Of a DNA stretch of 64,000 nt, positions 5,601 to 28,601 are shown in pieces (position 1 is the first letter of the stretch; each line of letters starts with the position of its first letter). The DNA comes from an uncultured Bacteroidales bacterium. GTDB taxonomy: Bacteria; Bacteroidota; Bacteroidia; Bacteroidales; Muribaculaceae. A model generated the notes under the pieces. The model did no database searches, was not told the DNA's origin, and worked only from the letters and a program-made list of their open reading frames with translations. The stretch covers positions 13,864 to 77,863 of the forward strand of contig CAMBDJ010000005.1 in NCBI GenBank assembly GCA_945865235.1, written 5' to 3'. The position numbers were made by a program, and so were the translations under genes.

Positions 5601-6121
5601 GCGGAAGTGTTTTTCGATATTCCGAAACGGTATTTGCCCGGGGTGGTGGACGGGCCCACAAAGGTCACGCCATAAGGACCGGTAAGCGATGAGCTGTCCT
5701 TTATTGTGCTGCTAGAGTTAATCGTTCCGAAGGCTGTGACATACATCAGGTCGGTGGCGTTCTGTACGTTTATCAGCATTGCTGCATATACGGAGCCGTC
5801 GGTGATGGCGTTGTAAGTGCCGTTGGCATTGGCGGCGTAGAAGGGGCGCAACACATCCTGGTCGGTGCTGGAAACCGGAGCGAGCCGTACCGAGTTGCCC
5901 GAGGCAAATCCGTCGAGCGAGAGAGTGGTGGATGTCACCTGGATGGGGTTTCCCTTGTTGTTGCTCTGCATCCAGCCCGGATTTCCGTAGAGGTTTCCGG
6001 GGGGATAGCTGAACGTCTCGGTGAAAATCACCTCGGCACTCGCGCTTGATGCGGCGAGCAGCGAAAGCGACAATGCTCCCGCGCTCAGCAAGTGGGATAA
6101 TGATTTGGTCATGTTAAACAA
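2642..6121 (-). CDS. Large multidomain secreted surface protein, T9SS cargo-like (lectin-like N-domain, OB-fold-like segment, ASH/Ig-like repeats, cleaved-adhesin/choice-of-anchor-J-like domain)
   Basis: 1159 aa. Signal peptide ending ASA/EV; GGGTTPDP linker; LEGWKNVAVDGNRAWW...EMLLLSPALD adhesin-like motif; C-terminal ITVYDLQGRTV...IYLLRI...KTIKYVRP sorting-domain-like tail. Confidence 0.8.
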   Translation of the reverse strand: MFNMTKSLSHLLSAGALSLSLLAASSASAEVIFTETFSYPPGNLYGNPGWMQSNNKGNPIQVTSTTLSLDGFASGNSVRLAPVSSTDQDVLRPFYAANANGTYNAITDGSVYAAMLINVQNATDLMYVTAFGTINSSSTIKDSSSLTGPYGVTFVGPSTTPGKYRFGISKNTSASTATLSDTELDYGTTYLIVLKYTAIPGTTNDTFTAWVNPVAGDSEPATADIKADTSKGDPTRGVAAFAICQTTSSSKKCPEMLVGPIRLATSWDELWSEGGGTTPDPVDKGEITVGKLSLPSGFALYQYQKYTTTVKVKAQGITEDIAISGNANVKPAVTAIPAAEACSAAGYDLTLTLDATAGTEINETLAFTSGETTASLPVKATVYPANTLASFRFISTIQPYETYYFSGKATVTFVDAANKKIYLQDVVGGMALDYSTMTGLEAAPFKLGDQLTKLYIMGAEPETTGGQPGCMLLAYYGADGIEYGTVNATDQSKEPLELTLADLNNNRDMYLNRLVKVNDVTFAAAGSNFSTAGTDITSGDATGKVRAFAGTDIIGTTIPQTAKAVVGISTSTSATMITMRSLADLIASPADEEKLEVTEQLLVDANEYYPVNVTTPFAKFTVKAQNLAKAAAIYVTGKDRSHFSADLTEIPAGTGEYVITVSFRPTSTGRKQGNLMIETSNTELTYNKGFAAQAYDPDNLPVFSVDNSAVTEFSAKVGDTQEQTVTINATGLLDYGSIRVLGQGNGAFRIGSTMFLKDGQTALKVTFAPTAEGTFTEVIEFSAAKAETKTITVTGKTAGGASAGDKEGDELVFDTANPLKYYATDFSNSGANNKPLALEGWKNVAVDGNRAWWSYNDDGNTVAKVTSYIWGGATSNEPTAEMLLLSPALDYKNCTSRLLSFRIKGNLLSDGQMGQLSVLYIDPTLPENQRYQVLLGGNDIPTGADAAGEWAEYVVDLEGLDLADVFFIGFHYISGAGATSPESYYVDDFCYGSTTQPFIRVDKRQVTTTAEVGMTQDLETITVTGLNLTEPIAVALEGQYKGLFTGYSEQLPAEGGELNFKYSPVEEGEHNVYVNLTSAGAPATQLIIGGKADNKSGITLPGVDNASEITVYDLQGRTVVPATGAAEAYKTLRTLDKDIYLLRITATDGTVKTIKYVRP

Positions 6122-7048: not shown

Positions 7049-9913
7049 ATGAAAAGATTTTTTACTCTCCTGATAATCGTCATGGCGATTATAGGGCAGA
7101 TGAGAGCGGAACGCAACTGGACGCCGCCGACAGGCGGTGCGACCAGTGAAGCAGTGCTCTATGCAGTGCTCAAGGCTGAAGATGGCAACGTTTTGAAGCC
7201 GGGAACGAATGTGATTCTCGGAGCCTTCGTCGGCAATAAATGTTACGCCATTTCTACGGCAAAGCAGGCATCGGAAGCAGAAGTGACGCCCGGCGAAGGC
7301 GTATTTACCCTTCGTTTCCCCGTCGATGACGCCGCCAGCACTACGTTGAACTTCGCGCTTAAGGTCAGCGATACCTATTCGGGAGAGTTCAGCGAGTACA
7401 CTCTTGCCGAGACAATTACCGTGAGCGGCGGCGACCAGACCATCAATAAGCCTTCTCAGCCCATGGAACTGGCATTCACTCCTATGATGGACTTCGAACA
7501 CAAGACCATTAATGTGAACGTGGGCCAGTCCGTAAGCATTGCCGAACACCTAATCATTTATCCCGAAAGTGCCAACTTGCCTGATGCCATGAAATATGAC
7601 TTAAGCGAATGCGCGGAGTACATCAGCGTGGCCGACGGCAAGGTTACCGGTTTGGCTCCCAATGTCGAAGGCTGCTCCCTGGGATTCAGTTTCCAGACAT
7701 TTGACGCCACCCTCAGCAGTGGATTCATGGTTTACGTTTACCAGCCCATCACCGGCATGGCGCTTACCGATCCCAGTGTCAGCGAGGTTACAGTAAACGT
7801 CAATGACGCCGACGACCTAACGGCCAAACTCTACAGACTTATCACCGTTACGCCTGCCGATGCCACAGAGGATGTGTTATGGCAAAGCTCAGATGACAGC
7901 GGTGTTTCCGTTGACGAGTACGAAAACGGCAAGCCAAAACTCACACCGCTCAAGGCCGGCACATACACCGTGACAGCAAGTTGCGAAGACCAGTCGATAG
8001 ATCCTATCGAGATTACGGTCAACGTCATCCAGCCCGTAACCGGCATTGCTATGAGCGACAAAGTAGTAGGCAACGGTCTCATAGTGGCTCAGGGCACAAA
8101 TGTCACGAAATTCATCCCGTATATCTATACCCTCACGCCCGCCGATGCCAGCCATCAGGGCGCCGAATACATCAGCGTTTCATACCGAGGTATATTCAGT
8201 GGCGAAAATCCGTTCCTAGAAGATGGCACTGCTGCAATTATCGGTTCAGGCGCTACAGGCTGGATTGTAATCACACACAGCGACATTCCCAATGATCCTG
8301 TCTACGTCCCCGTGACCATCATCAAAGGCTTGCCCGAGAACGCAAATGTGCCCGACTTCTCGACTTCGATTCAAGAAAGTCAACTGAATCAAACCAACAT
8401 CCAGCCCGAATTGAAAAGCCACTTTGAGAATGCTCTCGGCGGCAAATACGATTGGGCCGAATTCAAGTGGGCAACTTCGGACGCAGCTATTTTTAATCTG
8501 CCTAACGACGGTGTAAGCGAAGTCTACCCCCAAGCTTACGGCACGGCAACGCTCACGGGTTCGAAGACCATCTACGTCAGCGACTTCGACAGCAACGGCG
8601 AATTCCAAGTCTCAATGGCAAAGACTGGCCAAGTCCCCTTTAATGTCACCATCGCCCAGGGCCTCACATCAATCAGTGTCAACGACATCAAAATGGCTGT
8701 AGGAGGCACCTACACAATGACCATCAACACTGTGCCCGACGGCTTCATCCTCGACAACGTCGAGCTGTCAATCCCCGAAATGACCAGTGGCGTGCCTTAC
8801 TTCACGACCGAACGCATTGCCGGAACCAACAACTACACCTTGACAGGCGAATATCCTGCTGTAGAAGCCTTTAGCATTACTGCCGACGGCGTCTCGACCA
8901 GAGCCTGGGTGTACATCGGTCAGGAATTCGCATTTGAAGAAGGATGGAGCTGGATTTCGAACTACGCTATTGCACCTCTTGAACTCTCCAGCCTGGAAAA
9001 TCTGCAGGAAGTACGCTCGCAGACAGCCCTTACCTACAACGATCCCTCCTACGGCTGGTTCGGCGACATTGAAGAGTTGGGAATGGAAATGCATAAGGTC
9101 AACGTTGCTGCCGGCAAGTCTTTCTCCTTCTTGAATATTTCACAAAACATCGGTTTCAATTACGACAATCATCAATACACTTTCCAGCCCGGCTGGAACT
9201 GGTGGAACAATCCCTATTGCCACGACTTCGCGCTCAACGACGTGTTTGCCGGCATGGATGCTGACGGCTGGAAGGTGATTGGTCAGAATGGCTTCGCCGA
9301 GGGCGACACGCAGAGCTTTAATGGATCGCTTGAAGCGCTCAAGGCCGGCGACGGCTACATCGTCTACAATCCCGGCACTTCGGAAGTAAGCTTCAGCACC
9401 CCTGGCGAACTCACACTGACACGCTATGTAGCTCCCACTACGCAACAGAGTGCACCGGCACGCCGCGCACGTCAAGCCGCCGCGCTCAGCTACAATCCGC
9501 GTAAATTTGCCGACAATATGGCAATCGTGGCCGACTTAGGTACCGATGTTGATACCGACCGCTACAGCGTTTACGCTTTCGTCGGCGATGAATGCCGCGG
9601 TGAGGGCAAGGCAGTCAACGGTCGCTATTTCATCACTGCCTATGGCAAGCAGGGCGAGTATGTAACCCTTCGTGTAATCGATAACGAGACAGGCGAAATC
9701 CAGACAGCCAACAGTCTGCAGTTCGCTCAGGCCGTCGGTTCGCTCAAGTCTCCGGTTAAGCTCAACGTAAATGTCAGCGGTATAGAGAATATCACCGTCG
9801 ATGCCGACCAGCTTGACGACAATGCCGTGATTTATGACCTGCAGGGACGCCGCCTCGGCAAGGGCGCCAAGGGCCTGCTAATCGTCAACGGCAAGAAAGT
9901 CTTTGTTAAATAA
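7049..9913 (+). CDS. Secreted Ig-like (Big_2) domain protein with T9SS-type C-terminal tail
   Basis: 954 aa. Signal peptide; Big_2-like segments (VTPADATEDVLWQSSD, PADASHQ); tail VSGIENI...VIYDLQGRRL...LLIVNGKKVFVK. Confidence 0.85.
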   Translation: MKRFFTLLIIVMAIIGQMRAERNWTPPTGGATSEAVLYAVLKAEDGNVLKPGTNVILGAFVGNKCYAISTAKQASEAEVTPGEGVFTLRFPVDDAASTTLNFALKVSDTYSGEFSEYTLAETITVSGGDQTINKPSQPMELAFTPMMDFEHKTINVNVGQSVSIAEHLIIYPESANLPDAMKYDLSECAEYISVADGKVTGLAPNVEGCSLGFSFQTFDATLSSGFMVYVYQPITGMALTDPSVSEVTVNVNDADDLTAKLYRLITVTPADATEDVLWQSSDDSGVSVDEYENGKPKLTPLKAGTYTVTASCEDQSIDPIEITVNVIQPVTGIAMSDKVVGNGLIVAQGTNVTKFIPYIYTLTPADASHQGAEYISVSYRGIFSGENPFLEDGTAAIIGSGATGWIVITHSDIPNDPVYVPVTIIKGLPENANVPDFSTSIQESQLNQTNIQPELKSHFENALGGKYDWAEFKWATSDAAIFNLPNDGVSEVYPQAYGTATLTGSKTIYVSDFDSNGEFQVSMAKTGQVPFNVTIAQGLTSISVNDIKMAVGGTYTMTINTVPDGFILDNVELSIPEMTSGVPYFTTERIAGTNNYTLTGEYPAVEAFSITADGVSTRAWVYIGQEFAFEEGWSWISNYAIAPLELSSLENLQEVRSQTALTYNDPSYGWFGDIEELGMEMHKVNVAAGKSFSFLNISQNIGFNYDNHQYTFQPGWNWWNNPYCHDFALNDVFAGMDADGWKVIGQNGFAEGDTQSFNGSLEALKAGDGYIVYNPGTSEVSFSTPGELTLTRYVAPTTQQSAPARRARQAAALSYNPRKFADNMAIVADLGTDVDTDRYSVYAFVGDECRGEGKAVNGRYFITAYGKQGEYVTLRVIDNETGEIQTANSLQFAQAVGSLKSPVKLNVNVSGIENITVDADQLDDNAVIYDLQGRRLGKGAKGLLIVNGKKVFVK

Positions 9914-9938
9914 GCCCAACACCTTCATTAGATAATGT

Positions 9939-9978
9939 CATGGCGCCCGTCAATATGGGCGCGGCGCCATGGCTTTTT
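9939..9978 (+). terminator. Rho-independent terminator
   Basis: CATGGCGCC...GGCGCCATG stem followed by GCTTTTT. Confidence 0.7.
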
Positions 9979-10118
9979 ACTTATTTAATCAATCAAAGTC
10001 TCTCCCCACCAATCGATCACATTCTCTCTCGCCAACCTCTCATTCCTCACAACATCCTCCCTCCTTTTCTTAAAATGGAAAATTCGCCCTTCGCGGCACA
10101 TTAATATATTCTAATAAG

Positions 10119-11834
10119 ATGCCACACCGCTTAATACGGAAAGTAATTGCAGCAATTGTTTTTGCTTTGTTATCTCAGCCAATGTTTGCGCAAAACATTT
10201 CAGAGATAGCGAAAAGCGACCCTTTGATTATATCCGGCGCAGTTGGAACACAAAACACATACCGTTATTCTTCGCACGGTAACGGATATGGGAGTCCATT
10301 AAGCAATGTGATATATGCGAATTTGAACATTTGCGTGTATGGCTTCAATATGCCTTTTTCATTGTATTACAGCAACGATAATTTAAACTTCAATTATCCG
10401 CAAATATCATTCAACATTTCTCCTACATATAAAAACTGGACCGGATATTTCGGCCAATCGACTATGTCCATGAGTAATTATGTAATGAACATGTCGTTTA
10501 ACGGTGTGGGACTTGAATACTCAAGCGAAAAGTTTCGTGCCGGGATTTTCTATGGCCGTTTACGTAACGCCATAAATGCCGATCCAAACGATCCGTATGC
10601 CCGCACACCTCAATACAAACGAATGGGATGGGGATTCAAAGCCGGTTATGGATCAGGCAAAAACTATATTGACCTTTATATGCTTTATGCCTATGATTCT
10701 CAAAATTCTATAGACGAACAATGGCGTCAACAAATTAATCCACAAGAAAATATTGTAGTGGGACTAAAAGGATGTGTAACACCATTTAAGTGGTTGTCGC
10801 TAACAGCCAATGCAGCGACTTCGATAATCAACACCGATATGCGTGCCCCTAAAGCTCCTGTAAAAACCGATTTTGATAAAGTGTTTGATGTAAAATACAG
10901 TTCACTTATGCGATTTGCCGGAGATATCAACGCAAATATCATTCTAAAGGGGTTGAATGCATCAATCAGTTACCGCATGGTACAGCCCAATTACACATCC
11001 CTTGGAACTTATTATATGTCAAATAATTATCATAGTTTAGGCATTAACGTCAGCACATCGCTCTTCAATAAAGTTTCTCTTTCGGGGATTTTTTCAGCAC
11101 AGGCTGATAATCTGTCAAAAGAGCAACTCTATACCACCTGCGGCTATGTGTATGCTGCTAATGCAAGCACACGCATAGGCAAGCATTTCAGTATAATGGC
11201 AGGATACAATGGCTATTTGCAGACTCAAAGAGATGGCACTTGTGTAGTAAATGATACTACACGCGTTCATCGTATTATGTCAAGTTACAGCATTACACCT
11301 GCATATAACCTTGATACTGAACATTTAGGACATAATATAAGCCTTTCGGCAAATCTTACTAAAAATAAAGACCTCAATAAGTTTGCCACCGGAGTGGGAG
11401 ACGTGAAAACTACAGCACTCGGCCTTTCTTATAATATTGATGTGAAACCAATTGAAACCGACTTTACTCTTACTTACAGTCGTCAGCAGTCAATTGGATA
11501 TAACAGTAAATACACAAGTGATGTCGCCTCATTGGGCACAAGTCGTTCGTTCCTGAAGGAGAATAACCTCAATTTATCGGCATCAGTATCGCTTAGCTAT
11601 AACGAGGTGGAACGACAATCAAAAAGTCTGTCTCTCGGAGCTGATTTTTCTGCAAGTTACACTCTTAAAAAAGTGCATATGTTTTCAGCCAGTGCGTCAT
11701 TTAACAAGTACGGAGATGTAAATATCACCCAGACACGCAGCGGTCTTGACTGTACGGATATTTCGGTGAGTCTCAACTATACTTACACATTCACGTTACT
11801 TGCCATCAAAAACAAAGCTAATAAAGGAAAATAA
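10119..11834 (+). CDS. Large outer-membrane beta-barrel protein of unknown function
   Basis: 571 aa. Signal peptide MFA/QN; many alternating hydrophobic/polar strands (YKRMGWGFKAGYG, LGLSYNIDV, ISVSLNYTYTF). The stop overlaps the next start (TAATG). Confidence 0.75.
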   Translation: MPHRLIRKVIAAIVFALLSQPMFAQNISEIAKSDPLIISGAVGTQNTYRYSSHGNGYGSPLSNVIYANLNICVYGFNMPFSLYYSNDNLNFNYPQISFNISPTYKNWTGYFGQSTMSMSNYVMNMSFNGVGLEYSSEKFRAGIFYGRLRNAINADPNDPYARTPQYKRMGWGFKAGYGSGKNYIDLYMLYAYDSQNSIDEQWRQQINPQENIVVGLKGCVTPFKWLSLTANAATSIINTDMRAPKAPVKTDFDKVFDVKYSSLMRFAGDINANIILKGLNASISYRMVQPNYTSLGTYYMSNNYHSLGINVSTSLFNKVSLSGIFSAQADNLSKEQLYTTCGYVYAANASTRIGKHFSIMAGYNGYLQTQRDGTCVVNDTTRVHRIMSSYSITPAYNLDTEHLGHNISLSANLTKNKDLNKFATGVGDVKTTALGLSYNIDVKPIETDFTLTYSRQQSIGYNSKYTSDVASLGTSRSFLKENNLNLSASVSLSYNEVERQSKSLSLGADFSASYTLKKVHMFSASASFNKYGDVNITQTRSGLDCTDISVSLNYTYTFTLLAIKNKANKGK

Positions 11835-13144
11835 TGAATTCCAATATGAAACGATATAGGTTAGCCACCTTACTTACCACTTGGTTAGTAAGTTGTGTAT
11901 GTGCTTTTGCGCAAGAAGTATTTGTAACAGTAACCCCCGTACAACAAGTTCTTCCGCCACAAGTGCTGTTGTATATGTCGGATCCGGAAAAGTATTTTAC
12001 AATTACATTGACCAATACTACATCCGACGTTCAACAGGTTTATTTAGGTCTTCAACTGGAGCAAATAATCCCTGCATCAGATTTAGCGATTGCCACACCG
12101 GCACATCGTCAGCCGAATGTGCCGTATATTATACAACCTAATTCGGTTTATACACTTAGCTCGACGGAAATGAAAAATATGTTCAATCATATTCCGGCGA
12201 GTGAAATTCAATGTCCGGCCAATCTTTTCGATGATTACACAAGCGGGGCATTCGGGTTGCTTCCGGAAGGAACTTATCGGGCTAAAGTAACTGCCTATCG
12301 TTGGGAAAATCCACAATTAAAGCAACCTGTTGTGGTAAATAATCCTGAAGGCGGATGGTGTACTTTTGAGGTATGCTACAAGGCACAGGCACCGCAATTC
12401 CTCACCCCCACGATAAACATGGCCGGCGACGAAACTGTGGCTCAAGTTGACCCGCTTACCGCTCAATTTACATGGACTACGCCTGTAACAAACTGTGGCG
12501 TTTCAACAACCTACACATATGATATCACAATTGTAGAATTACTCCCCGGACAACAACCCGATGTCGCCATGGACCGAAACCCCGTGGTTTATCAGGCAAA
12601 AGGTATTCTGCCCAACATGTGCATCATTTCTCCCCAAATTGTTACAAGTAATTTCTACGCCGACAAAACATATCTGGCACAAGTGAGAGCTGTGGCTAAG
12701 GCTAATGGCCCGCTCTCGTATGTGATGTTGGAAAACAATGGCAAGAGTACATATTTACCCTTTAAGTTTAAGACCAACAACAGTGATGATGATAAGAATG
12801 ACGATAAGGGTGATGATAAGGGTGATGATAAGGATGATGAGGACGAAAAGAGAGAAGACTTATTGAACCTCTGGGGCGATGGTTCGGTAACATCTGAGAT
12901 TGACTCGACAGCAATGTACAATTTCAGGAACCCGACCATAACCACCCCGACATTCAGCGAATTATCCGCACGAAAGCAGTTTCTGCGCAGCGATATGGCC
13001 GTCGCATGGCGCCAGGCCTGGCATCTGGGCGGACAGGCCGCACAAGCCGATACGCTGAAATTTGACTATGAAGTACAGCTGTTCAACGGCAAAACCACAA
13101 TCGACCGAAAAGCTGCGCTCGAAACCGAGCCCATCTATACATAA
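11834..13144 (+). CDS. N-terminal part of a TANFOR-domain giant secreted protein (ends at a premature in-frame TAA)
   Basis: Signal peptide AFA/QE, then QEVFVTVTPVQQVLPPQVLLYMSDP...LTNTT...VYLGLQLE resembling the TANFOR domain (TIGR02542), then an FN3-like domain. The frame stays open after the TAA at 13142-13144. Confidence 0.75.
   Translation: MNSNMKRYRLATLLTTWLVSCVCAFAQEVFVTVTPVQQVLPPQVLLYMSDPEKYFTITLTNTTSDVQQVYLGLQLEQIIPASDLAIATPAHRQPNVPYIIQPNSVYTLSSTEMKNMFNHIPASEIQCPANLFDDYTSGAFGLLPEGTYRAKVTAYRWENPQLKQPVVVNNPEGGWCTFEVCYKAQAPQFLTPTINMAGDETVAQVDPLTAQFTWTTPVTNCGVSTTYTYDITIVELLPGQQPDVAMDRNPVVYQAKGILPNMCIISPQIVTSNFYADKTYLAQVRAVAKANGPLSYVMLENNGKSTYLPFKFKTNNSDDDKNDDKGDDKGDDKDDEDEKREDLLNLWGDGSVTSEIDSTAMYNFRNPTITTPTFSELSARKQFLRSDMAVAWRQAWHLGGQAAQADTLKFDYEVQLFNGKTTIDRKAALETEPIYT
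12788..12835 (+). repeat. Four 12-bp tandem units encoding an acidic DDK[N/G/G/D] linker
   Basis: GATGATAAGAAT GACGATAAGGGT GATGATAAGGGT GATGATAAGGAT. Confidence 0.9.
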
Positions 13145-13225
13145 TTAATCAGGGGTACACAGGCGCTGTCCGATACCATACTTTGGAGCAAAATCGAGGA
13201 CAAGGTAAACGAGAAAGACTACCTT

Positions 13226-16200
13226 GTGCTTCGCGTAAAACCTATTTGTACTAATTTCAGTGATTCCATTGTTTTTCAGGGCGACTCCCTGAATGTGGTC
13301 GACTTTGCATTGGTCGATGCAATTTCAAAATCGTACTTCCAATGCTCCAACATGGTGGAGCTCGACAACGAGAACCCCACCACAGCCAAAGCCGATGACC
13401 TGAAGGGCAAGACTATCCCTATCGGCGAATATATGCTCACCATCGATGAGATAAAAGCAGGCCAAAAAGCCGATACCTGGGAGGGTAAAGGCAAGGTCGA
13501 ATGGAATCCGTTCGGCACCAAGGTGATGGTGTGTGTCAAGTTTGAGGATTTGAAGATCAATACCGACCTGGTTGTCTTTGACGGTACTGCCAAGACATAT
13601 TCGGCCGACCCGCAGAGCAACAACGATATTGTAGAAGAGCTGTTCAGCGATTGGGGTATCGACAATTTGATTGCCGACACCGGTATTCCGTATGCCAACG
13701 AATTGCAGTCGGCTGCTACAGACGGAGTCAAAAGCCTTGCCGAAAAAATAGATTTAAGCCAATATTACGAATATTACGTCAAAGGCGAGCATCTATGGGA
13801 TATGATCGGCAGCCAGGATATTGAAGAACTCTATCTGCCGATTGCATTGCCCGACGCAGTGACAAGTCAAAGCCCGGTGAATGTGCAGATCTCGACAATG
13901 AAATTTGCGGCGACTCATGCCACAATGGACATTATCGGCGAATTTGTAATGCCCGACTGTGATGTTCTGGACAACCAGATATTGGTATTCGGTGCACCGC
14001 GTATCTGTATCTCTCCCGACCGCATTCTGCCGGAATCGGGCACATTGGCGTTGTTGTCGGATTTTAAAGTGACCGACCCCAACTCCGATTATGAATGTAC
14101 GTTCAAAGCTCCGAAAGATGTAATCAACCCCACGGACGGTTGCTACGTTTCGTGGCATGACGACGCGTTCGAAATGTTGGGTATCGATGTTGACATGAAG
14201 ATACCCGGCCTGAAAAAAGATGTAAACGGTGTCGCCCAGGACGAATGCCCCGTGTTTAACATCAAGACAAGCATCAGCGATTGGGACGACTGGTGGGTGG
14301 ATAACATTACGATCGACCCCTTCCAGGTCGAAGACCTTCCGGGCTGGACCTTCACCGTCCAAAACGTTGTGTACGACCACTCGGTGTACAACAACTCAAC
14401 CAAAATGGGCAAGTTCCCGGCCAAGTACGACCAGAAAAAAACCACGTATAACGGCAATGTGAACACCTGGCAGGGCCTCTATATCAAGGAAATCGGCGTA
14501 AAGATGCCAAAGTCGCTGGAGTTTGGCACCGACGGCGACAAACGCTTGTCGATTGCCGCCAAAAATATGTTCTTTGACAGTTCCGGCGCTACCCTTGAAA
14601 TAGGAGCCGACGATATACTGTCGGCCAAAACCGGCAAAGCCGGAGGCTGGTCGTTCTCGCTCGACAAAGTGCACGCTACTTTTATCCAAAACGACTTCAG
14701 CGAATGTGGTTTCAGCGGCCGATTTGACGTACCCTTGCTTGAGGGCCAGATGGGCTATGCATGCCAGATTCTGAAGGTCAACGACCTTGAAAACTCCCCG
14801 GCCGGCAACTATGCCTATGTGTTCAAGGTGCAGCAGATGGACGACCTGAGCCTGGACTTCTTCCTGGCCACAGCCAATTTTGATAAGGATTTGACCTATA
14901 TGCTCGTCGAGGCAGTGCCCGAACAGAACGAGCTGAAGACCCGCGTCGAACTGCTTATGAGCGGCGACATGACCATCGGCGGCGACGCCATGAAGGAGAA
15001 AATGAAGAGTTCTCTTGGTTTCGAGCTCCCCGACATCCATTTCTCAAAGATGCGTCTGGCCAACTGCCCGGCGTGGGAGTCGCAGTTTGAGGACATAAAG
15101 AAACTGCAGACAGCCGAAGACCCCAATAAACCGCTGGCCGACCTTTACGAAGGCAAGGAGTTCAACGTCAACGACCAACTGTATTTCAGCACAGGTCAGT
15201 GGTCGCTGGCTTCGTTTGGCAAGAAGCTGGGTCCGTTTGAATTCAGCGTCACAAAATATAATATCGACTACAAGGACGAATTGCTGGGCCTGTCGGTCGA
15301 GGGCGAAATAAAACTGCTCGAAGGCTTTGACTTCAGTGCCTCCGCCGGCTTCACGATCAATGCCAAATTGAGCGGAATCACCAGCCTGGCCTCTGACTTC
15401 GATTTCTCGAAGATCGACCTCAGCTATGAGAGCACCAAGTTCGATAAGGCTGGGTTCAACACGTCTTTTGCCGGCATAACGCTGAAGGGCGAACTTGAAG
15501 CCGTTGATGATGAAACTAATGGCAAAGGCTATAGTGGTATGCTCGAGTTCACCATGCCCGGCGAACTCTTTACCGCCAAGGCCAACGGTGGATATTATAA
15601 ACTTGACGACTATCGTTGGGGATATTTCTATACATCCGTAGGCGGTGCGGCAGGTATTCAGATTCCCCCTATCGAAATCAACGATATTTCGGCAGGCTTC
15701 TATTTCAACTGTGTGCGCAAAGGCGAAACCGAGGCCGAGCCTCGAAAAGGCATCATCGGCGTAGTGGCCGGCATGGGCATCGCTTCATCCGCAGGTAAAG
15801 ATGTGATTGGAGGCGACTTTGAGATGACCGTCGTCTATGACAAAGAGAACAAGCGCCTAACCACCTTCATGCTGACAGGACATTTGTCGGCAGTCGCCGG
15901 TATGATTAGTTCCGATGCGTCCATAGTATGGCAGGATGATGATACCGACAAATATTTTGCATTGAACATCACTGTCGATGCCGCCGCCGATGGAGGAGAC
16001 ATAGGTGAAAACGTGACCGCGCTGTCGGAAGATTTGGCCGAGAAGCAAAAGGCCCTCAACGACAAAGTGAAAACGGCTGTCAATAATGCCAAGGGCGGAC
16101 TTCAAGGTGCATTAAACGACACATCCGATTCAAAAGCCGGTGAGGAAACCGATAACAAAATGCCCGAAAAGCCCAAGGTGGGAGAGTTGGAAATATCTCT

Positions 16201-19186: not shown

Positions 19187-19204
19187 AAGACCAATATACG
19201 ATAT

Positions 19205-21547: not shown

Positions 21548-21591
21548 AAAAGCTGCAAGGCGGAACACCCAATCCCGAAACAGAAAACTTT

Positions 21592-22299
21592 ATGATAAAG
21601 AGGATAATACACATATTACCATTCTCATGCATAATGCTCTTGGCTTCGCTCTTTACATCGTGCGGACTCATTGACATGGAATTTGATGAGAATGTACAAA
21701 TCGATTATGACATGCAGCTTGACCGTGATACGGTATATGTGACTGTAGGTGACTCTTTTGTCTTGCACCCGGTGTTTAGTACCGATTCCGTAATCAACCG
21801 GGAAGTGTTTTTCGCTTCGGCTCACGAAGATATTGCGTATATACATAATGACACTATTAAAGCCGCAGGTGAAGGAGAAACTGTGATCAGCGCTACTTCT
21901 GTAATGAATGAAAAGACAGCTTCTTGCCGGGTCTTCGTGTTGCCGCCCTGGGAAATAGACATCTATAAATATTCATACGATATGGTAGTCTATGCCACGG
22001 CCGCGGTCAATGGAGTGCCCTTGAACCCCGAGACCCAGACAATAGCGGCATTCGTTGGCAACGAATTACGTGGCATCGGAGAACCTATGGAATTAAAGGA
22101 CTCTAAGACAATAGTGCGAATACGCATCTACGGTTATTACGAATGGGACGACGGCGAGCCGACTGCCCCCGAGTTAGTGCGTTTTGTATGCTACGACCGA
22201 GAGGAAATGATGTTGAAATATTTATCCCTATATATTGATTTCGATGGAGAAACTCACGGCACCCCCTCGGCACCGTTAGAGTTAACTACCGATTATTAA
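21592..22299 (+). CDS. Lipoprotein with Big_2 Ig-like domain and C-terminal AFVGxExRG domain
   Basis: The ATG at 21592 gives MIKRII...LFTS/CGLIDMEFDE (lipobox followed by acidic residues). The ORF-track start at 21343 overlaps the previous gene and is unlikely. Confidence 0.8.
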   Translation: MIKRIIHILPFSCIMLLASLFTSCGLIDMEFDENVQIDYDMQLDRDTVYVTVGDSFVLHPVFSTDSVINREVFFASAHEDIAYIHNDTIKAAGEGETVISATSVMNEKTASCRVFVLPPWEIDIYKYSYDMVVYATAAVNGVPLNPETQTIAAFVGNELRGIGEPMELKDSKTIVRIRIYGYYEWDDGEPTAPELVRFVCYDREEMMLKYLSLYIDFDGETHGTPSAPLELTTDY

Positions 22300-22342
22300 C
22301 AAGTCTTTAACCTCAAACCTATAACATTTCAATAAATCAGAT

Positions 22343-24673
22343 ATGAAAAAATCATTTCTATATACTCTTTACTTATTAATATTGACGATGACCTCCTGCA
22401 CCCTGAGCATGGAGGAATTCGTTCTCACCGAAGACCAAAGAGGCAAGGATGAACCATATACTGAAGTCAATGAGTATGGCGAGTTTACGTATCAATATAA
22501 CGACAATGTAACATCACTTAACGGCGAGCCTCAGGATTACATCGCCATGATGAACGATTCTGTCATCTGGTTTATGGACAATATGCCGGAAAAGTGGATT
22601 CCTAAGGTAGACCATTATATAGCTGCGAACTGCTCGAAGACGGTGCCTTTGGGACTGTGTGCCAAAGTAATCTCGGTTTCGCGCGAAGGCGGGATGATTC
22701 GCGTCGAGCATAAGCCTGCCGAAGAGAACGAAGTGTTCAAACAACTGAAAATGCGAGTCGACCTGGAATATGTCATGCCCGAACTGGGTGATTTTGAGGA
22801 CGACAGTATTGCGACGCAGTCCCGTAGCACATCTTCGATAGGTCGACCCGGATTTTGGCGCAGCGACTCGGAATTTGTGGATATGTCGCTGTTTGAACGT
22901 CGTTCCCGCAGCGACGATCAGAAAAACGAAGAGAAAAGAGATACGACCAGGTTCACTTTCAGCAAGACCTTTGATACTCCAAAAGGACCTCTATTTGTTA
23001 ATCTTGAGTATAAATCGACTGACGTGGTAAATGTGCATGCATATAGAGATTTGGAAGACGAATATGAGGAGCAATGGAATGACCAATATACCGAACGCGA
23101 CATAGATGTACTCGTAGGGTATGGCAAAGATAAAGCCTCGACAACCAAAAACTACTCAGGCTGGCCAGTGAATCTTTTGGACATCAAGGGTATGAAGGAA
23201 GACTTGGAAAAGTTAAAAACTGGGGTGATAAATAGGAAAAAGGTAGGGGAAAAAAATATTACACTCCCTATCCCCGGTACTGCCTTTTCTATAAAGTTCC
23301 GTGCTGTTGCCGATGCCGGGTACACTGTCATGGGATATGGAATGGTTAAGATGAGGTATCGTTCGGAGACCCATCGTACCGGATATATTTTTTCAAAAGG
23401 AAACAAAAAGGAAATAGACGAAGATGTGGCCAATCCCGTAAACCCACCGTATTTTGGGTTTCCCACGATCCAATTCGGCGGTTCCATTGACTTTTGGCTA
23501 CGCCTTAGAGCCGGCGCAGGTCTCGTTTTTGGAAATGCCGCCGCCGGAGTCGGTGCTGTCGTAGGATTGGAAATTAAAGGGGGATTAAAGGCTTCGCTCG
23601 AAACAGAATCGGTGACCGATAGACTATTTAGGGATGATCAAAACTTTAAGGCCGGATTTTATGGCACAATCGGTGGCTTTGGCGAAGGCGTAATGAATCT
23701 TGGCCCCTTTACATATAGCTTGGGCGATTTCACTTTTATGACTACAGAAATACCTGCGTTAACTCATATGCCTAATCTGAAGGCCGAAGTAGATCCGCAT
23801 AAGACCAAAACAAAACTGATTGTAAAGGAAAATGAAGAAGTTCAGTTTGATGAAGACGGATATCCACTCATAGATCCTGTTACCGGCGATTATATTACCG
23901 AAAAACATGACGAAGTGACTATAAATACAGAATTGAATTTCAAAAAACTTGAAACTTTCTTCCTCTTTGCGACGTCCACAAAATCGGACCAACGGCCGGC
24001 CCTGCGCATCTACGAATCAACCAGAAACGACCATACGAGAAAAGTTGCGGAGGTGATAGGTTATGAAGTACTGGAGAAGGGAAAAACTTACGAATTCAAT
24101 GTCAATCCCAAAGATTACGGCTTGAGCGAAACGAGCGGAGAGTATAAAGTCGTTCCATGCATCTATGACATATCGTCAGAAACAATTACCGAATATCAAA
24201 ATGATGCAAAGATTGCCAGTTCCAATAATCCCAGAGCAAATCAACCGAAGTGTTACCAAACGTTTGGGCGCGAAATAGATCCATATGATTTCACCTATGA
24301 AGACAGGTATGGTGAAGGATGTTTCGATGGAAAGAACATTGAAGACATTACAGAATATGAAATAGAAACGGTTGTCGAACTAAAGAACGCTTCCCGCATC
24401 ACGGAATGGGGTTTCATATATTATTTGATCGACCCTCATGCAAAGGAAATTAAGGATCAAAGAAAGGAAATCTCTATGCCCTTCAAAGGCGTATGTAAAT
24501 CCGGGAAATATACACATAAAATTTCGTTCCTATCGGAATACAGAGCCGAGAAACCCGGTTCCGGAATAGGAGCTCCTTCTGTGTCCGTTGTGGTTTATTA
24601 TAAATATGACGGCAAAACACATTTTAGCGATTTGTCTAAAAATGTAACTTTACAATTTCCTTATGAACGGTAA
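22343..24673 (+). CDS. Large lipoprotein of unknown function
   Basis: 776 aa. Lipobox LTMTS/C followed by acidic TLSMEEF; N-domain PLGLCAKVISVSREGG resembles Bacteroidales surface lipoproteins; Gly-rich beta segment in the middle. Confidence 0.8.
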   Translation: MKKSFLYTLYLLILTMTSCTLSMEEFVLTEDQRGKDEPYTEVNEYGEFTYQYNDNVTSLNGEPQDYIAMMNDSVIWFMDNMPEKWIPKVDHYIAANCSKTVPLGLCAKVISVSREGGMIRVEHKPAEENEVFKQLKMRVDLEYVMPELGDFEDDSIATQSRSTSSIGRPGFWRSDSEFVDMSLFERRSRSDDQKNEEKRDTTRFTFSKTFDTPKGPLFVNLEYKSTDVVNVHAYRDLEDEYEEQWNDQYTERDIDVLVGYGKDKASTTKNYSGWPVNLLDIKGMKEDLEKLKTGVINRKKVGEKNITLPIPGTAFSIKFRAVADAGYTVMGYGMVKMRYRSETHRTGYIFSKGNKKEIDEDVANPVNPPYFGFPTIQFGGSIDFWLRLRAGAGLVFGNAAAGVGAVVGLEIKGGLKASLETESVTDRLFRDDQNFKAGFYGTIGGFGEGVMNLGPFTYSLGDFTFMTTEIPALTHMPNLKAEVDPHKTKTKLIVKENEEVQFDEDGYPLIDPVTGDYITEKHDEVTINTELNFKKLETFFLFATSTKSDQRPALRIYESTRNDHTRKVAEVIGYEVLEKGKTYEFNVNPKDYGLSETSGEYKVVPCIYDISSETITEYQNDAKIASSNNPRANQPKCYQTFGREIDPYDFTYEDRYGEGCFDGKNIEDITEYEIETVVELKNASRITEWGFIYYLIDPHAKEIKDQRKEISMPFKGVCKSGKYTHKISFLSEYRAEKPGSGIGAPSVSVVVYYKYDGKTHFSDLSKNVTLQFPYER

Positions 24674-25070
24674 GCCGTGCTTTATATTTATCGTATTCAT
24701 GGCGATGTTCTGCAGGGTCTATGCTCTTGACTTAGACTCTGCAGGCTCGTCGCCCAAAATCGAATTTGACAGTCGCGAATTCGATTTGGGCGAGGTGTCG
24801 CAGTCGACTGACTCAATCAAATCATGCGACTTTGAGTTCGTCAACTCCGGGACTTCCGATCTGGTAATCATAAATGTGGCCACCGGCTGCGGCTGTACCC
24901 GGGCCTCGTATGCAAAAGAGCCGATAGCGCCTCAGTCAAAGGGTAGTGTAAAAGTGACGTACAATGCTTCCCGTCAACGAAAAGGGCCGTTCAGAAAATC
25001 GATAACCGTATTTTCGAACGACCCAAGAAGATATGTAAGGTTTTTTATTTTCGGGACTGTGGTAGATTAA
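24663..25070 (+). CDS. DUF1573 domain protein
   Basis: EFDLGEV...FEFVNSGTSDLVIINVATGCGCT...PIAP...KSITVFSN; overlaps the previous gene by 11 nt. Confidence 0.9.
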   Translation: MNGKPCFIFIVFMAMFCRVYALDLDSAGSSPKIEFDSREFDLGEVSQSTDSIKSCDFEFVNSGTSDLVIINVATGCGCTRASYAKEPIAPQSKGSVKVTYNASRQRKGPFRKSITVFSNDPRRYVRFFIFGTVVD

Positions 25071-25076
25071 CCTTTA

Positions 25077-25108
25077 GACCCCGTTCCCCAATATTTGTTA
25101 ACGGGGTC
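25077..25108. mobile_element. 32-bp collapsed derivative of the 59652-59878 MITE, flanked by TTA on both sides; also forms a hairpin between convergent genes
   Basis: TTA-GACCCCGTTCCCCAATATTTGTTAACGGGGTC-TTA. The first 27 bases are identical to the MITE right terminal repeat (read inward). Confidence 0.7.
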
Positions 25109-25687
25109 TTATAGAACCGGCTCTAAATCGATGCAGAAGACACGGATTGGACCGGGAATTTGAGACACTACAGGCATCAGGCCGGGAGCTGGTGATGTCT
25201 GCGTGGAGTTGCCGGGGTGTAACGGATTGTTAGTGCCGGGAAATTGTGCCGGGAAATTGTGCCGGGAGGTAACGGGTTGTAATTGGGGATGAGCGATGAC
25301 TTGCGCGGCATAGAAATGTCCGGAGATGAAGTTGGCAAGATATTTCGCCGGAATGAGGATTTGAGGCTGAAGAAGCCCTTTCTTTTGGAAAAAGACCGGG
25401 GCGTGCTCCATTAAGTAGTCCACGGGCTGGCCCTCAACGAGTTCTACAACGCGGAAATCGTAGGTGTATGTGGCGGTCGGAGCATCTGCTACGACGGGTG
25501 GCGTCCACTGGAAGATTGGAGTTTGAGCCGACAATGTGTAAATGTCATAACCGTCGATATTTTCGTCGGAGCTTTGCTGAATGGGGTTAACCCAGATTGG
25601 GGCCTGAATATTGACCTCTTGAGCGTTAGCTATGGCAAGCACGGCGAACACCAATGTTATAGCCGTGAAAATTCTTGGTGTTTTCAT
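25109..25687 (-). CDS. Small secreted protein paralogous to the FN3-like domain following TANFOR in the giant protein
   Basis: Signal peptide ANA/QE. FQWTPPVVADAPTATYTYDFRVVELVEGQ aligns by eye with FTWTTPVTNCGVSTTYTYDITIVELLPGQ of ORF 11834. Confidence 0.8.
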   Translation of the reverse strand: MKTPRIFTAITLVFAVLAIANAQEVNIQAPIWVNPIQQSSDENIDGYDIYTLSAQTPIFQWTPPVVADAPTATYTYDFRVVELVEGQPVDYLMEHAPVFFQKKGLLQPQILIPAKYLANFISGHFYAAQVIAHPQLQPVTSRHNFPAQFPGTNNPLHPGNSTQTSPAPGLMPVVSQIPGPIRVFCIDLEPVL

Positions 25688-25691
25688 GGTT

Positions 25692-28601
25692 TTACTCGGC
25701 TTGTTGTGATTGTGAGCGGAAGGCCAGCGGCGTCATGCCCGTGGCTTTGCGGAAAATGGTGCTGAAGTAGTTCGGGTCGTCCATGCCACAGCGGTAGGCG
25801 ATTTCGGAGACTGTAAGATCGGTGTCATGCAGCAGGCTTTTGGCTTGGCTTATTCTGAGCTGCAGGATATAGTCCTTTGTCGTCAGGCCTGTAATGGCTT
25901 TAAGTTTGCGGTTAAGCTGGGCACGGCCTACTGACAGTTCTGATGCAATCTGATCGTAATCCAGTTTCCCTTTTTCCATATATTTATGTACGATGGCCAC
26001 AAACTTGTCGACGAATGCCTTGTCGCGCTGTTCGCGTTCGGTGAGAGGAGTTTCGTCTAAAACTTCTTCGGTCTCGGTGGTTACGGGCAAGTCCTGACCG
26101 GCGGTCTTAGCCAAAACTGAGGCAAATTTCCGTCGCATCATGGCGCGTTGTGCCATAAGTTTTTCGGCGCGGATGTTGAGTTCGTCGGCATGGAATGGCT
26201 TTTCCAAGTATGCGTCGGCACCGGCTTCAAGTCCTTTCATGCGGTCATCGTGTGTGGCACGGGCGGTGACCATTATCACAGGCACGTGGTCGACAATGGT
26301 AGACTTCCGGATTTGCTCTGTCAATTCAAAGCCGTCCATTTCGGGCATCATCACGTCGGTAATGATGAGGTCGGGCACTAATTCCTCGGCCTTTGCCAGC
26401 GCCTCCTTACCGTTAGCGGCAAAATAGTAGCTAAACGTCGGATTCATCTGCGCAGCGATGTATCTGGCCACATCGGGAGTGTCTTCCACTATCAGCACAC
26501 GTGTTACATCAGCTTCGCTGTCGCTTTCATCTTCAGCACTGGAGGGAGTGCCTTTGGCTGCGAGTTCCGGCTGTTCCGGGGTATAATTTTCCATCTTGAA
26601 TGGTTCCTCTACCGGCACGGAGGCTTTCAGGGGGATTGTGACGGTGAATTTAGCGCCGTGCCCTGTCTCACTGTCAACGCTTATCGATCCGCCCATTGCT
26701 TTGGACGAAAGGTCGGCCAGAGGCAGACCAAGGCCGGAACCGGCATTATAGTTGCCGTTATTGGCTTGGTAAAACGGCTTGAATATTTCCTTCTGCTGCT
26801 CCTTGCTCAGACCCACGCCTTCATCATGTACCGTGAGCACCAGATTATCGCCTTTTGCCGTGGCATTAACATGCACCGAACCGCCAGGTTTCGAGAACTT
26901 CACGGCGTTAGAGACCAGATTGAGTATAATTCGTTCAATATACTCGGGTACGAAGTCCATTGGTATCTCCGTTGGCTCAGCACTATACTCAACCGACACA
27001 TTGCGTTCGGCTCCATACATACGGCAGTTTTCGCATAGCATGGTAAGGTAGCCCGATATATCGCCATGTTTGTAAGGCAGAGTATGGGCGCCGCTCGAAA
27101 GTTTGGCAATGTCAAGAAGTTGGTTCACGAGTCGTAGCAGATTGCCTTCGTTGCGACGGATGGCATGGAGGTCATCGGTTATGATGTCGGCCTCGCCGAT
27201 GTGCTTAAGGGCGTGGTCAGATGCTCCGCGTATAACGGTGAGCGGAGTGCGGAATTCGTGGGTGATGTTGTTGAAGAAATTTGTGCGCTCTCTGTCCTGC
27301 CGGCTCAGTATGTCATTGCGCAGACGGCGCATTCGGTTCAATCTGATAAGCAACAGTATTGCGCATGCTGCCAAAAGAAGTATGATTGAGGCACTCCAGA
27401 TCACCGTGCGAAGCTGACGCTTTTCGTATTCAAGGTTCCGGTGTAACTGTTGCTGTTGCTCCTGAAGTTTTTCATTTTCATATTTGGCAGCGAATTCGCT
27501 GGTCGTCTCGCGGATTTCGCGCTGGTAAAGCGAATCCTTGAGCACGCTGAGGCGTTCGAGGTGAGCCATCGCCTCGCGCGGATTGGACTGCTTCAGTGCT
27601 TCATACAGTCCCTGGCGACTCTTGCTCTCGTTGAAGAAATCGCCGCTTTGGCTGAAGAACGATAGCGCCTTGTTGAAATATTCGGCAGCTTTAGCCGGCT
27701 GATTGTCGGTCAGGGCGATGGAGCCAAGCTGATTGCAGGCAATGGAATATGACTGCTTGTTTCCCGCTTTCTCAAGCATTGGCAGGGCCTTGAGCAGGTT
27801 CTCGCGGGCTTCAGCCGTTTTGCCGGCACCCATCTGAGCGGTGGCCAACTGGCAAAGACGTATTGCAGCGCGGTCTTGGCGACCACAGGCCATTTCTATT
27901 TGGTAGGCTTTTGTGGCATATTCTATCGCCTTGGCATTGTCTTTTAGATCCTGAAACACCTCAGAGGCGATGCCCATCTGAACAGCCATTCGCAACGAGT
28001 CGCCGACAGCGGAACTGTTTTTGATAGCTTCCAATATATATGTACGCGCATCGGCCGGGCGATCAGACGACAGATACATGAACGCCAGATTGCTCAAGTC
28101 GATGCTTATAGTGCTCTTGTCTCCGGTTTTGCGGTCTATCTCGAGCACTTCTTCGCCATATTTGATGGCGTTGGCATAGTCGGCAGTTCGGGCACATGCG
28201 GCCGAGAGGGTGCTCAGGCAGTCAATGAGCTTGTCGCCACTCAAGAGCGGGAGAGCCCTGTTGCCAAACTTGATGGCGTCTTTGTATTGCTGAGTGCTGA
28301 AGCAGTAGCTCGAGGCTTTCAACCAGAACTCGGCACGCACCGAGTCTGCCGGCCACCCGGCTGGCATCTTGTAAGGTTCGTCGAAAAACTCCTCGCCGTT
28401 GAGTATATCATAGAAACGGTTTGCAAGTTCCTTTTGCCGACTGTCGTTGGCATTATCAAACTCGGATAGGATTTGAGGCACGTTCATCTTGCCGACCGGT
28501 TCAGCCGATAAGCCGAGGCCGGAAAACAGCATTGCGAAAGCAACCGAAAGAATGGATCTTTGGCAAATACGGAGAGGATTCAATCTGAAAATTATGGCCA
28601 T
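25692..28601 (-). CDS. Hybrid two-component sensor/regulator with periplasmic TPR input (HisKA, HATPase, REC, AraC HTH)
   Basis: TPR-like helices; TM segment VIWSASIILLLAA; H-box ITHEFRTPLT; GSGLGL; REC LIVED...ITDVMMPEMDG...KPF; AraC end AYRCGMDDPNYFSTIFRKATG. Confidence 0.92.
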   Translation of the reverse strand: MAIIFRLNPLRICQRSILSVAFAMLFSGLGLSAEPVGKMNVPQILSEFDNANDSRQKELANRFYDILNGEEFFDEPYKMPAGWPADSVRAEFWLKASSYCFSTQQYKDAIKFGNRALPLLSGDKLIDCLSTLSAACARTADYANAIKYGEEVLEIDRKTGDKSTISIDLSNLAFMYLSSDRPADARTYILEAIKNSSAVGDSLRMAVQMGIASEVFQDLKDNAKAIEYATKAYQIEMACGRQDRAAIRLCQLATAQMGAGKTAEARENLLKALPMLEKAGNKQSYSIACNQLGSIALTDNQPAKAAEYFNKALSFFSQSGDFFNESKSRQGLYEALKQSNPREAMAHLERLSVLKDSLYQREIRETTSEFAAKYENEKLQEQQQQLHRNLEYEKRQLRTVIWSASIILLLAACAILLLIRLNRMRRLRNDILSRQDRERTNFFNNITHEFRTPLTVIRGASDHALKHIGEADIITDDLHAIRRNEGNLLRLVNQLLDIAKLSSGAHTLPYKHGDISGYLTMLCENCRMYGAERNVSVEYSAEPTEIPMDFVPEYIERIILNLVSNAVKFSKPGGSVHVNATAKGDNLVLTVHDEGVGLSKEQQKEIFKPFYQANNGNYNAGSGLGLPLADLSSKAMGGSISVDSETGHGAKFTVTIPLKASVPVEEPFKMENYTPEQPELAAKGTPSSAEDESDSEADVTRVLIVEDTPDVARYIAAQMNPTFSYYFAANGKEALAKAEELVPDLIITDVMMPEMDGFELTEQIRKSTIVDHVPVIMVTARATHDDRMKGLEAGADAYLEKPFHADELNIRAEKLMAQRAMMRRKFASVLAKTAGQDLPVTTETEEVLDETPLTEREQRDKAFVDKFVAIVHKYMEKGKLDYDQIASELSVGRAQLNRKLKAITGLTTKDYILQLRISQAKSLLHDTDLTVSEIAYRCGMDDPNYFSTIFRKATGMTPLAFRSQSQQAE

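Follow-up and report, generated by a model that had tools for sequence, protein, structure and literature searches.

We analyzed 64,000 nucleotides (nt) of contig CAMBDJ010000005.1 (assembly GCA_945865235.1, positions 13,864 to 77,863 of the forward strand) from an uncultured Muribaculaceae bacterium of the order Bacteroidales, a stretch that is called the window below, and to whose first letter all coordinates refer. Between 7049 and 28601 it holds nine genes, A to I, which a preliminary description of this DNA had proposed to form a surface-display or secretion system, and of which we find A to G to be one copy of a conserved, uncharacterized Bacteroidales envelope gene set rather than a chance arrangement, with H and I as the regulatory genes paired with it here. 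Gene A (7049-9913, + strand) encodes a predicted exported protein of 954 amino acids (aa) with an AFVG-type module at its N-terminus and another before its tail, Big_2-like repeats, and a short C-terminal tail resembling those of type IX secretion system (T9SS) substrates. It is followed on the same strand by gene B (10119-11834, +), for an orphan outer-membrane β-barrel of 571 aa modeled with 26 strands and neither plug nor POTRA domain; gene C (11834-19186, +), for an exported giant of 2,450 codons that is split here into parts of 436 and 2,013 aa; gene D (19205-21547, +), for an exported FN3-repeat protein of 780 aa with neither lipobox nor T9SS tail; gene E (21592-22299, +), for a predicted lipoprotein of 235 aa, counted from the ATG that gives a lipobox, made up of a Big_2 domain and a module common with A; gene F (22343-24673, +), for a fast-evolving predicted lipoprotein of 776 aa; and gene G (24663-25070, +), for an exported DUF1573 protein of 135 aa that is an accessory member. 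Facing these are gene H (25109-25687, - strand), for an exported protein of 192 aa that is a stand-alone copy of the second N-terminal domain of the giant, and gene I (25692-28601, -), for a hybrid regulator of 969 aa with TPR, HisKA-HATPase, receiver and AraC helix-turn-helix (HTH) regions.

The open reading frame (ORF) map agreed with the preliminary description on the coordinates, strands and tight or overlapping spacing of all genes from A to I, and its export signals were likewise borne out, in that a signal-like N-terminal segment can be read by eye in all nine cluster ORFs. B shares 1 nt with C, and F 11 nt with G; the remaining intervals between C and F measure 18 to 44 nt, and H starts 4 nt past the stop of the sensor gene I. 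The gap between A and B is 205 nt and contains a strong terminator-like hairpin followed by a U-run (9937 to 9978, +; 15-bp stem, -29.6 kcal/mol, z score -5.5, then CUUUUUA), suggesting that A may form a separate or attenuated transcript. This hairpin came from a fold-energy computation and was not picked up by a consensus terminator scan. A scan for sigma-70 promoters returned 40 sites where 31 were expected and is uninformative for Bacteroidales.

The ten proteins of the window, their orthologues and distant relatives of the giant were searched against Pfam and NCBIfam, with matches reported at E ≤ 0.01 unless E ≤ 10 is stated. Clear family matches were obtained for G (DUF1573) and I (TPR, HisKA, HATPase, receiver and AraC HTH) only; A, B, C, D, E, F and H matched no model at E ≤ 0.01, barring a weak Big_2 match in A. 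In the PDB, no usable sequence match was obtained for the barrel or for profiles of F, of the giant and of its head. Accordingly, no component could be assigned to a characterized secretion or pilus family by the Pfam, NCBIfam and PDB searches, and no description of the cluster was found in the literature on DUF1573 in Bacteroidetes and on 26-stranded barrels in Bacteroidetes. Since the labels TANFOR, FN3 and T9SS cargo, which the preliminary description had attached to these genes, could not be verified on the window's own sequences, they were tested through orthologues.

Taking D as the anchor, we used its profile to find relatives in 323 species genomes, fetched 79 loci together with flanks of up to 10 kb, and searched these loci by tblastn with all ten window proteins (individual loci are given L numbers below). 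The giant lies upstream of D in all 57 loci that extend at least 9 kb upstream of D, and in 51 of them it is in turn preceded by the barrel. In the remaining six the fetched DNA ends within the open frame of the giant, and for one of these, L031, the barrel was later found in L086. Where at least 3.6 kb downstream of D was available, E was present in 62 of 62 loci and F in 55. Five of the seven loci without an F match carry a lipoprotein of 725-855 aa in the F slot, with a Cys and then an acidic pair within a few residues, whereas in L054 the slot is taken by an ORF of 912 aa in which no lipobox can be read at the listed start, and in L080 by a lipoprotein of 822 aa whose motif differs. In at least 31 loci, the barrel is immediately preceded by the end of an A-like gene. 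The gene G, which had been listed with the cluster, has a clear Pfam match (PF07610, E 1e-26) and follows F in 27 of the same 62 loci, and when further conserved genes were sought downstream of F there, DUF1573 alone recurred. The barrel, the giant, the FN3 protein and the small and large lipoproteins thus stand in one fixed order wherever the fetched DNA reaches, so that the possibility that these genes fail to occur together in other genomes can be set aside: B, the giant, D, E and F are syntenic in every fetched locus with enough flank. Taken over all loci, the recurrence data define a core A-B-C-D-E-F, with G as an accessory, and this core recurs in fixed order across gut and rumen Bacteroidales.

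Conservation differs along the set. For the best tblastn segment, median identities to the proteins of the window were 62% for B, 45% for D, 43-44% for C, 37% for E, and 34% for A and F. B is the most conserved gene, and conservation is lowest in F, in A and in the C-terminus of the giant, a pattern that would be expected if a membrane core carried exposed outer parts. The spacing of B and C was 4-70 nt in four other loci that were read and 483 nt in a fifth, L089. The genome of the window has a single copy of the barrel. Tandem copies of the cluster occur in L085 (JAZQOH010000044.1), where the D-E-F end of one copy is followed by a complete second copy, and in L086 (DCHS01000051.1), where the first copy is succeeded by another A-like gene and the beginning of a further gene.

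The β-barrel assigned to B in the preliminary description was borne out by an AlphaFold2 model from an alignment of 27 sequences (mean pLDDT 77.3), which has 26 strands over residues 37 to 562 and no N-terminal domain, plug or POTRA domain. No Pfam or NCBIfam family matched the window copy, and none recurred among the 27 members in Pfam at E ≤ 10; the 906 homologues of B have no Pfam domain on record and are called 'hypothetical protein' wherever named. Foldseek against the PDB placed MtrB first (E 2e-11, TM score 0.47), followed by FimD/PapC, SlpA and LptD, with TM scores ranging from 0.25 to 0.47, which at the level of the model is general large-barrel similarity and not membership in any of these families. 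The synteny, the tight spacing of B and C and the plugless 26-strand model make B a candidate translocator or anchor of the giant, and the best fold match points the same way, MtrB being a sheath around another protein. We therefore tentatively favor, at somewhat less than an even chance, the view that the module is a dedicated outer-membrane display or export device in which B would be the conduit or socket of the giant, and which is paired with its own regulator.

The giant had been described as a protein of ~2450 codons, and a frame of 2,450 codons is indeed present; in the window, however, it is broken by a TAA at 13142-13144 (+) into two same-frame ORFs, of which the second (2,013 codons) has no signal peptide of its own. 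An identical barrel protein is encoded on 20 other contigs, and the four of these that were fetched are 98.5-99.3% identical to the window over ~15.5 kb. All four have an intact giant of 2,444-2,448 aa, and the three that are readable at the site of the TAA have a sense codon there. The giant is also a single ORF, of 2,400-3,300 aa, in ~50 orthologous loci, and is interrupted in two others. The TAA is thus either a recent strain-specific nonsense change or an assembly error. Because the stop cuts the giant after residue 436, the multiprotein assembly is probably not made in the strain of the window, and, judged from the sequence, the system is probably off in that strain.

The giant begins with a head that remotely resembles TANFOR, which is followed by a second Ig-like domain, an acidic linker, a large β-meander core and a C-terminal part of ~450 aa. 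It is conserved along most of its length, with dips at the acidic linker (~residue 320), at two further linkers and in the last ~450 residues. The core was modeled from 51 sequences (residues 760-1959; mean pLDDT 74) and is mostly formed by ~45 long antiparallel strands, of 10-20 residues each, arranged in hairpins. Foldseek matched this model to LptD, porins, OccD2, SlpA and the β belt of ApoB100 with probabilities up to 0.98. The strands of the core equal those of B in amphipathicity (+1.17 for the hydrophobic and -0.94 for the polar face, compared with +1.15 and -0.86 in B). These matches to outer-membrane barrels and the amphipathic hairpins suggest that the giant could itself be an integral outer-membrane protein, folded as one or more very large barrels with the Ig-like head in the periplasm and the variable C-terminus outside, like an inverse autotransporter, in which case B would be a partner pore or assembly helper and no conduit; examples of outer-membrane proteins with several barrels have been described from Prevotella and Bacteroides (PMC8346858). 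Nevertheless, these matches have very low TM scores (not exceeding 0.16 when normalized by query length, or 0.34 by target length), the pTM of the model is 0.42, amphipathic strands are also found in soluble sheets, and no hidden Markov model (HMM) of an outer-membrane barrel matches the giant. We consider a membrane-embedded giant unlikely, yet it is the main rival to a giant threaded through or held in B, and the T9SS route, cryptic toxin and lipid bridge discussed below are less likely than it is. The model does not discriminate between a closed barrel, an open sheet and a stalk. Apart from a weak match to DUF6603, the giant had no sequence match in Pfam or the PDB. DUF6603 was dropped as a lead, no mention of this family having been found in the literature, and the poly-8 multi-barrel families of Prevotella and Bacteroides (PMC8346858) were likewise set aside, no barrel HMM having matched.

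When 1.84 billion proteins were searched with a profile of residues 1120-1960 of the giant, 1,695 representative clusters were found, the longest proteins reaching ~5,000 aa. Two long members end in arrays of LRR and DUF285 (BspA-type) repeats recognized by Pfam, and the extensions of other long members have, by eye, LRR-, coiled-coil- or S/T-rich-looking tails; five shorter distant relatives had no Pfam domain. Judged from these sequences, the family appears to combine a conserved chassis with a distal end that is variable and adhesin-like. In two long relatives, P0249 and P0347, the C-terminus matches the C-terminal domain of ribosomal protein L7/L12 (PF00542; E 4e-11 in P0347), which is odd for an exported protein.

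The long amphipathic sheets, the matches to LptD and the ApoB100 β belt, and the combination of a 26-strand barrel with lipoproteins, which recalls LptD-LptE, also raise the possibility that the cluster serves envelope biogenesis, as a bridge carrying lipid or glycolipid in the manner of LptD or TamB/AsmA, and not surface display. We regard this as very unlikely. No AsmA, TamB or LptD model of Pfam or NCBIfam matched B or the core of the giant at E ≤ 0.01, no TamB/AsmA-type structure was among the top 50 fold matches listed, and in the fold matches to LptD the TM score reached no more than 0.16 with the giant and 0.3 with B. Moreover, the patchy distribution, the tandem copies in some genomes and the inactivation seen here are unlike a housekeeping pathway, and the C-terminal ends of the giants are variable and adhesin-like.

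The preliminary description had further called the giant a TANFOR protein and TANFOR a domain with no assigned function, and neither statement survives in that form. TIGR02542 (TANFOR) did not match the giant of the window even at E ≤ 10, nor was it found in one search of the whole 2.25-Mb, 92%-complete genome, in which a single candidate passed the first look for scoring. Among the first 450 residues of 29 giant orthologues searched against NCBIfam, one (L068) matched TIGR02542 with an E value of 0.0078 and 16.1 bits, far below the cut-off of 67 bits, over profile positions 4-126 of 145 and directly after the signal peptide. This E value applies to 18,950 models, and for a single-model test over 29 proteins the chance expectation is ~1e-5; the likeness was therefore taken as real but remote. 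It amounts to a sub-threshold likeness in one of 29 orthologues and not in the window copy. As for function, TANFOR proteins were described as polymorphic toxins, for which export by the T9SS was speculated, by Jana, Salomon and Bosis in 2020 (PMC7073777), who reported that the vicinity of TANFOR genes is enriched in T9SS cargo and FN3 domains and that >95% of carrier genomes have the T9SS. A similar setting is present here, with a giant bearing a readable signal peptide, T9SS-tagged A orthologues and the FN3 protein D adjoining. Their neighborhood survey was domain-based and mentions no barrel or lipoproteins (PMC7073777); since only known domains were surveyed, a barrel without a domain assignment would go unseen.

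This likeness raises the question of whether the locus is a TANFOR-class polymorphic toxin locus, in which the C-terminal ~450 aa of the giant, its least conserved part, would be an unrecognized toxin and a downstream gene would encode immunity. We think this hardly probable: neither the giant nor its neighbors contain a toxin or immunity domain recognized by Pfam or NCBIfam, the C-terminus can be aligned across the family without a sharp break, and the long relatives carry adhesin-type LRR arrays and no toxins. In addition, the genes that follow the giant are the conserved D, E and F, not a small variable immunity gene.

Returning to B as a possible conduit or socket for the giant, two features of its proposed partners, FN3 in D and the T9SS tail in A, were seen in orthologues and lie below detection in the window copy. 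The preliminary description of D as a 780-aa FN3 protein found no support from Pfam in the window copy, whereas it is upheld by orthologues and by a profile: 273 homologues of D were detected, some with PF00041 or named FN3 domain-containing, and the profile of D matched an FN3 domain in the PDB (E 4e-4). The N-terminal domain of E is a Big_2 domain, as judged from profile matches in the PDB (E 6e-11). The two lipoproteins proposed at the outset gained support from the lipobox, which is kept in 59 of 66 members of the E family and 59 of 63 members of the F family, and in F the lipid-modified Cys begins a C-T-L-x-M/L-D/E-E motif with D/E at +6/+7 in 86-92% of members. E and F are thus predicted lipoproteins with conserved acidic residues a few positions after the Cys. 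The two share a post-Cys motif (families A8 and A4; window 21592-21630 and 22343-22420), reading C-G-L-I-D-M-E-F in E and C-T-L-S-M-E-E-F in F, which could be a common sorting or docking signal. F had no match in Pfam or the PDB and no homology to the giant; the idea that it shares the glycine-rich strands of the giant was ruled out by hhalign (probability 0.6%). A 42%-identical copy of G adjoins the sensor gene, rather than F, in L087.

Gene A had been described as a T9SS cargo gene upstream of the barrel. T9SS tail models do not match A of the window, so in this copy the signal is below detection, whereas PF18962 (Por_Secre_tail) was found in 14 of 32 orthologous A tails (best E 4.5e-5) and is the sole recurrent family there. 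Since the tail of the window's A has, by eye, the same terminal motif as its orthologues, A is probably T9SS cargo. The domain that had been reported as common to A and E was evident when profiles were compared: the pairwise E value was 0.04, while hhalign of 32 A-family tails against 34 E-family members gave a probability of 98.3% (E 1e-14, 77 columns). This module is the C-terminal domain of E and, by eye, also occurs at the N-terminus of A. Together with the domain that H shares with the giant, it ties the flanking genes to the core.

That a T9SS-tagged gene heads the cluster, that T9SS cargo and FN3 domains surround TANFOR genes in genomes that nearly always have the T9SS (PMC7073777), and that L090 carries, ~5 kb upstream of its cluster (1402-1857), a lipoprotein gene of the gldH type (PF14109), whose product is a gliding/T9SS component, would all fit a route in which the giant and its partners leave by the T9SS through an unrecognized signal, with B as a cargo-specific anchor like PorP/SprF for SprB. 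As the preliminary description had stated, however, neither the giant nor D has a recognizable T9SS tail: no type A or type B C-terminal domain was found in the whole proteins, and none in their last 99 residues at E ≤ 10. B also matches no PorP/SprF or PorV model of NCBIfam or Pfam at E ≤ 0.01, with none recurrent among its 27 members in Pfam at E ≤ 10. Known anchors of the PorP/SprF type are much smaller barrels than one of 26 strands. Export of the giant by the T9SS thus seems improbable.

Regulation by an own TPR sensor, also part of the original proposal, held up in that I is a hybrid kinase with TPR and AraC domains that are clear in Pfam, and in that homologues stand beside the cluster elsewhere. 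I matched NF053520 (FimS-like) with an E value of 8e-41 over 552 of 618 profile positions, at 139.9 bits against a cut-off of 600, and so, by sequence, would share the FimS architecture without being an equivalog or orthologue. Its TPR region lies upstream of the one strongly hydrophobic segment found, which begins at ~residue 396; this single segment and a hydrophobic N-terminus, read by eye, fit a periplasmic TPR domain. H, as had been noted, repeats a domain of the giant (residues 185-286, the second N-terminal domain; BLASTP E 1e-15, 40% identity). The same convergent H-I pair follows F in L069, from Prevotella sp. P3-122 (identities of 58% for H, 64% for I and 40% for D), the only D-anchored locus that has it; an H-like ORF is also found in L030. 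Because the D-anchored loci stop short of the region upstream of A, contigs centered on the barrel were read for other lineages. A TPR gene and a kinase-receiver-AraC gene lie upstream on the same strand in L086; in L087, a divergent gene for a 937-aa sensor homologue, and then a DUF1573 gene, lie upstream; and L089 has a divergent TPR-AraC homologue upstream. The homologues of L086 and L087 align to I over 700-860 residues with ~30-33% identity, and that of L089 aligns over both the TPR and AraC parts. No sensor homologue was found beside the cluster in L085, L088, L090 and L091. Full-length sensor homologues thus accompany the cluster in five of nine lineages and in three different arrangements, far above chance for this regulator family, indicating that the association is real but not universal.

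Outside the genes of the cluster, a 10-bp GC-rich hairpin (GACCCCGUU...AACGGGGUC) lies at 25074-25111, between the convergent stops of G and H, and is marginally better than shuffled sequence (z score -1.7). Just left of the cluster an ORF of 1,159 aa (2642-6121, -) is located in a stretch whose G+C content is raised to 55-59%, compared with ~47% in the adjoining DNA. DDE transposase genes are found a few kb upstream of A in the conspecific contigs L081 and L083, and housekeeping genes are found there instead in L082, so that the left flank of the cluster is variable within the species.

If B acts as conduit or socket, the cluster might work as follows. All parts would cross the inner membrane by Sec, and B would serve as a dedicated outer-membrane passage or holder in which the giant is threaded through or held, leaving its variable C-terminus exposed on the outside. 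A stalk or collar of the assembly would be built from the FN3 protein together with both lipoproteins, while protein A would arrive separately via the T9SS and dock by the module that it has in common with E. The periplasmic TPR domain of the sensor would adjust transcription, and H, as a free copy of a giant domain, may be its ligand or reporter. Several observations weigh against this scheme. The giant is broken in the very strain from which the window comes, neither the sensor nor DUF1573 is universal among the loci, the pTM of the giant core is low, and the amphipathicity of its strands and its matches to outer-membrane barrels leave room for a giant that is itself embedded in the membrane.

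A stronger form of this proposal is that B, the FN3 protein and the lipoproteins make up an undescribed export or anchoring pathway for TANFOR-like giants that is independent of the T9SS translocon and is monitored by a FimS-like sensor via the free giant domain, in effect a new type of secretion system; we hold this to be doubtful. TANFOR-class giants were described in 2020 without a known exit route, and the cluster, which in hundreds of Bacteroidales species of gut and rumen places a large, conserved, plugless barrel beside a TANFOR-like giant, may be their route to the cell surface. Should B prove to be the conduit or socket, it would represent a new outer-membrane route for very large proteins in abundant members of the gut microbiota of animals, with a probable bearing on adhesion, given the LRR/BspA-type ends of some relatives. 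Prevotella sp. P3-122 is a cultured carrier, and the strain of the window, with its stop, and the 99%-identical strains, in which the giant is intact, are natural variants.

Several known systems resemble parts of this cluster. Its arrangement recalls two-partner secretion (FhaC/FHA, CdiB/CdiA), in that the gene for a barrel of ~570 aa lies directly upstream of that for a Sec-exported giant with a variable distal end, the two genes overlapping in the window. TpsB proteins are 16-strand barrels with POTRA domains, and TpsA proteins have a TPS domain, whereas B, as modeled, has 26 strands and lacks an N-terminal domain, and neither B nor the giant is matched by a Pfam or NCBIfam model at E ≤ 0.01. 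In MtrCAB and LptD-LptE, 26-strand plugless barrels enclose another polypeptide and are paired with lipoproteins, and MtrB is the best fold match of B; however, the TM score is 0.47 only, there is no sequence relationship, and the cluster has neither cytochromes nor Lpt components. Chaperone-usher pili (FimD/PapC, PapD) are likewise built on a large barrel, the second-best fold match of B, and the cluster contains a small periplasmic Ig-like protein, G, whose DUF1573 we take to belong to the PapD-like clan. B nevertheless has no match to the usher HMM (PF00577), no plug and no N- or C-terminal usher domains, the TM scores to FimD/PapC are 0.35-0.44, DUF1573 comes after the cluster in only 27 of the 62 loci with room, and there are no pilin-like subunits.

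Parallels within the Bacteroidota are with SprB, TANFOR giants and fimbrial regulation. SprB with SprF/PorP is also a giant surface protein next to a dedicated barrel, with T9SS-linked neighbors; the giant described here differs in having no type B C-terminal domain, and B differs in matching no PorP/SprF model, in being much larger and in lying upstream of the giant. TANFOR giants (PMC7073777) are, like the giant of the window, very large Bacteroidota proteins with a Sec signal directly followed by a domain of ~145 aa, have T9SS-tagged and FN3 gene neighbors, and are without an assigned export route; in contrast to them, the giant of the window has neither a C-terminal toxin nor an immunity gene, and its body is conserved along its length. 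Finally, in FimS/FimR of Porphyromonas gingivalis, as in gene I, a TPR domain precedes a histidine kinase and the gene stands beside those for a surface structure. Gene I reaches 140 bits where the FimS-like model asks for 600, and its kinase is fused to its own receiver and AraC DNA-binding domain.

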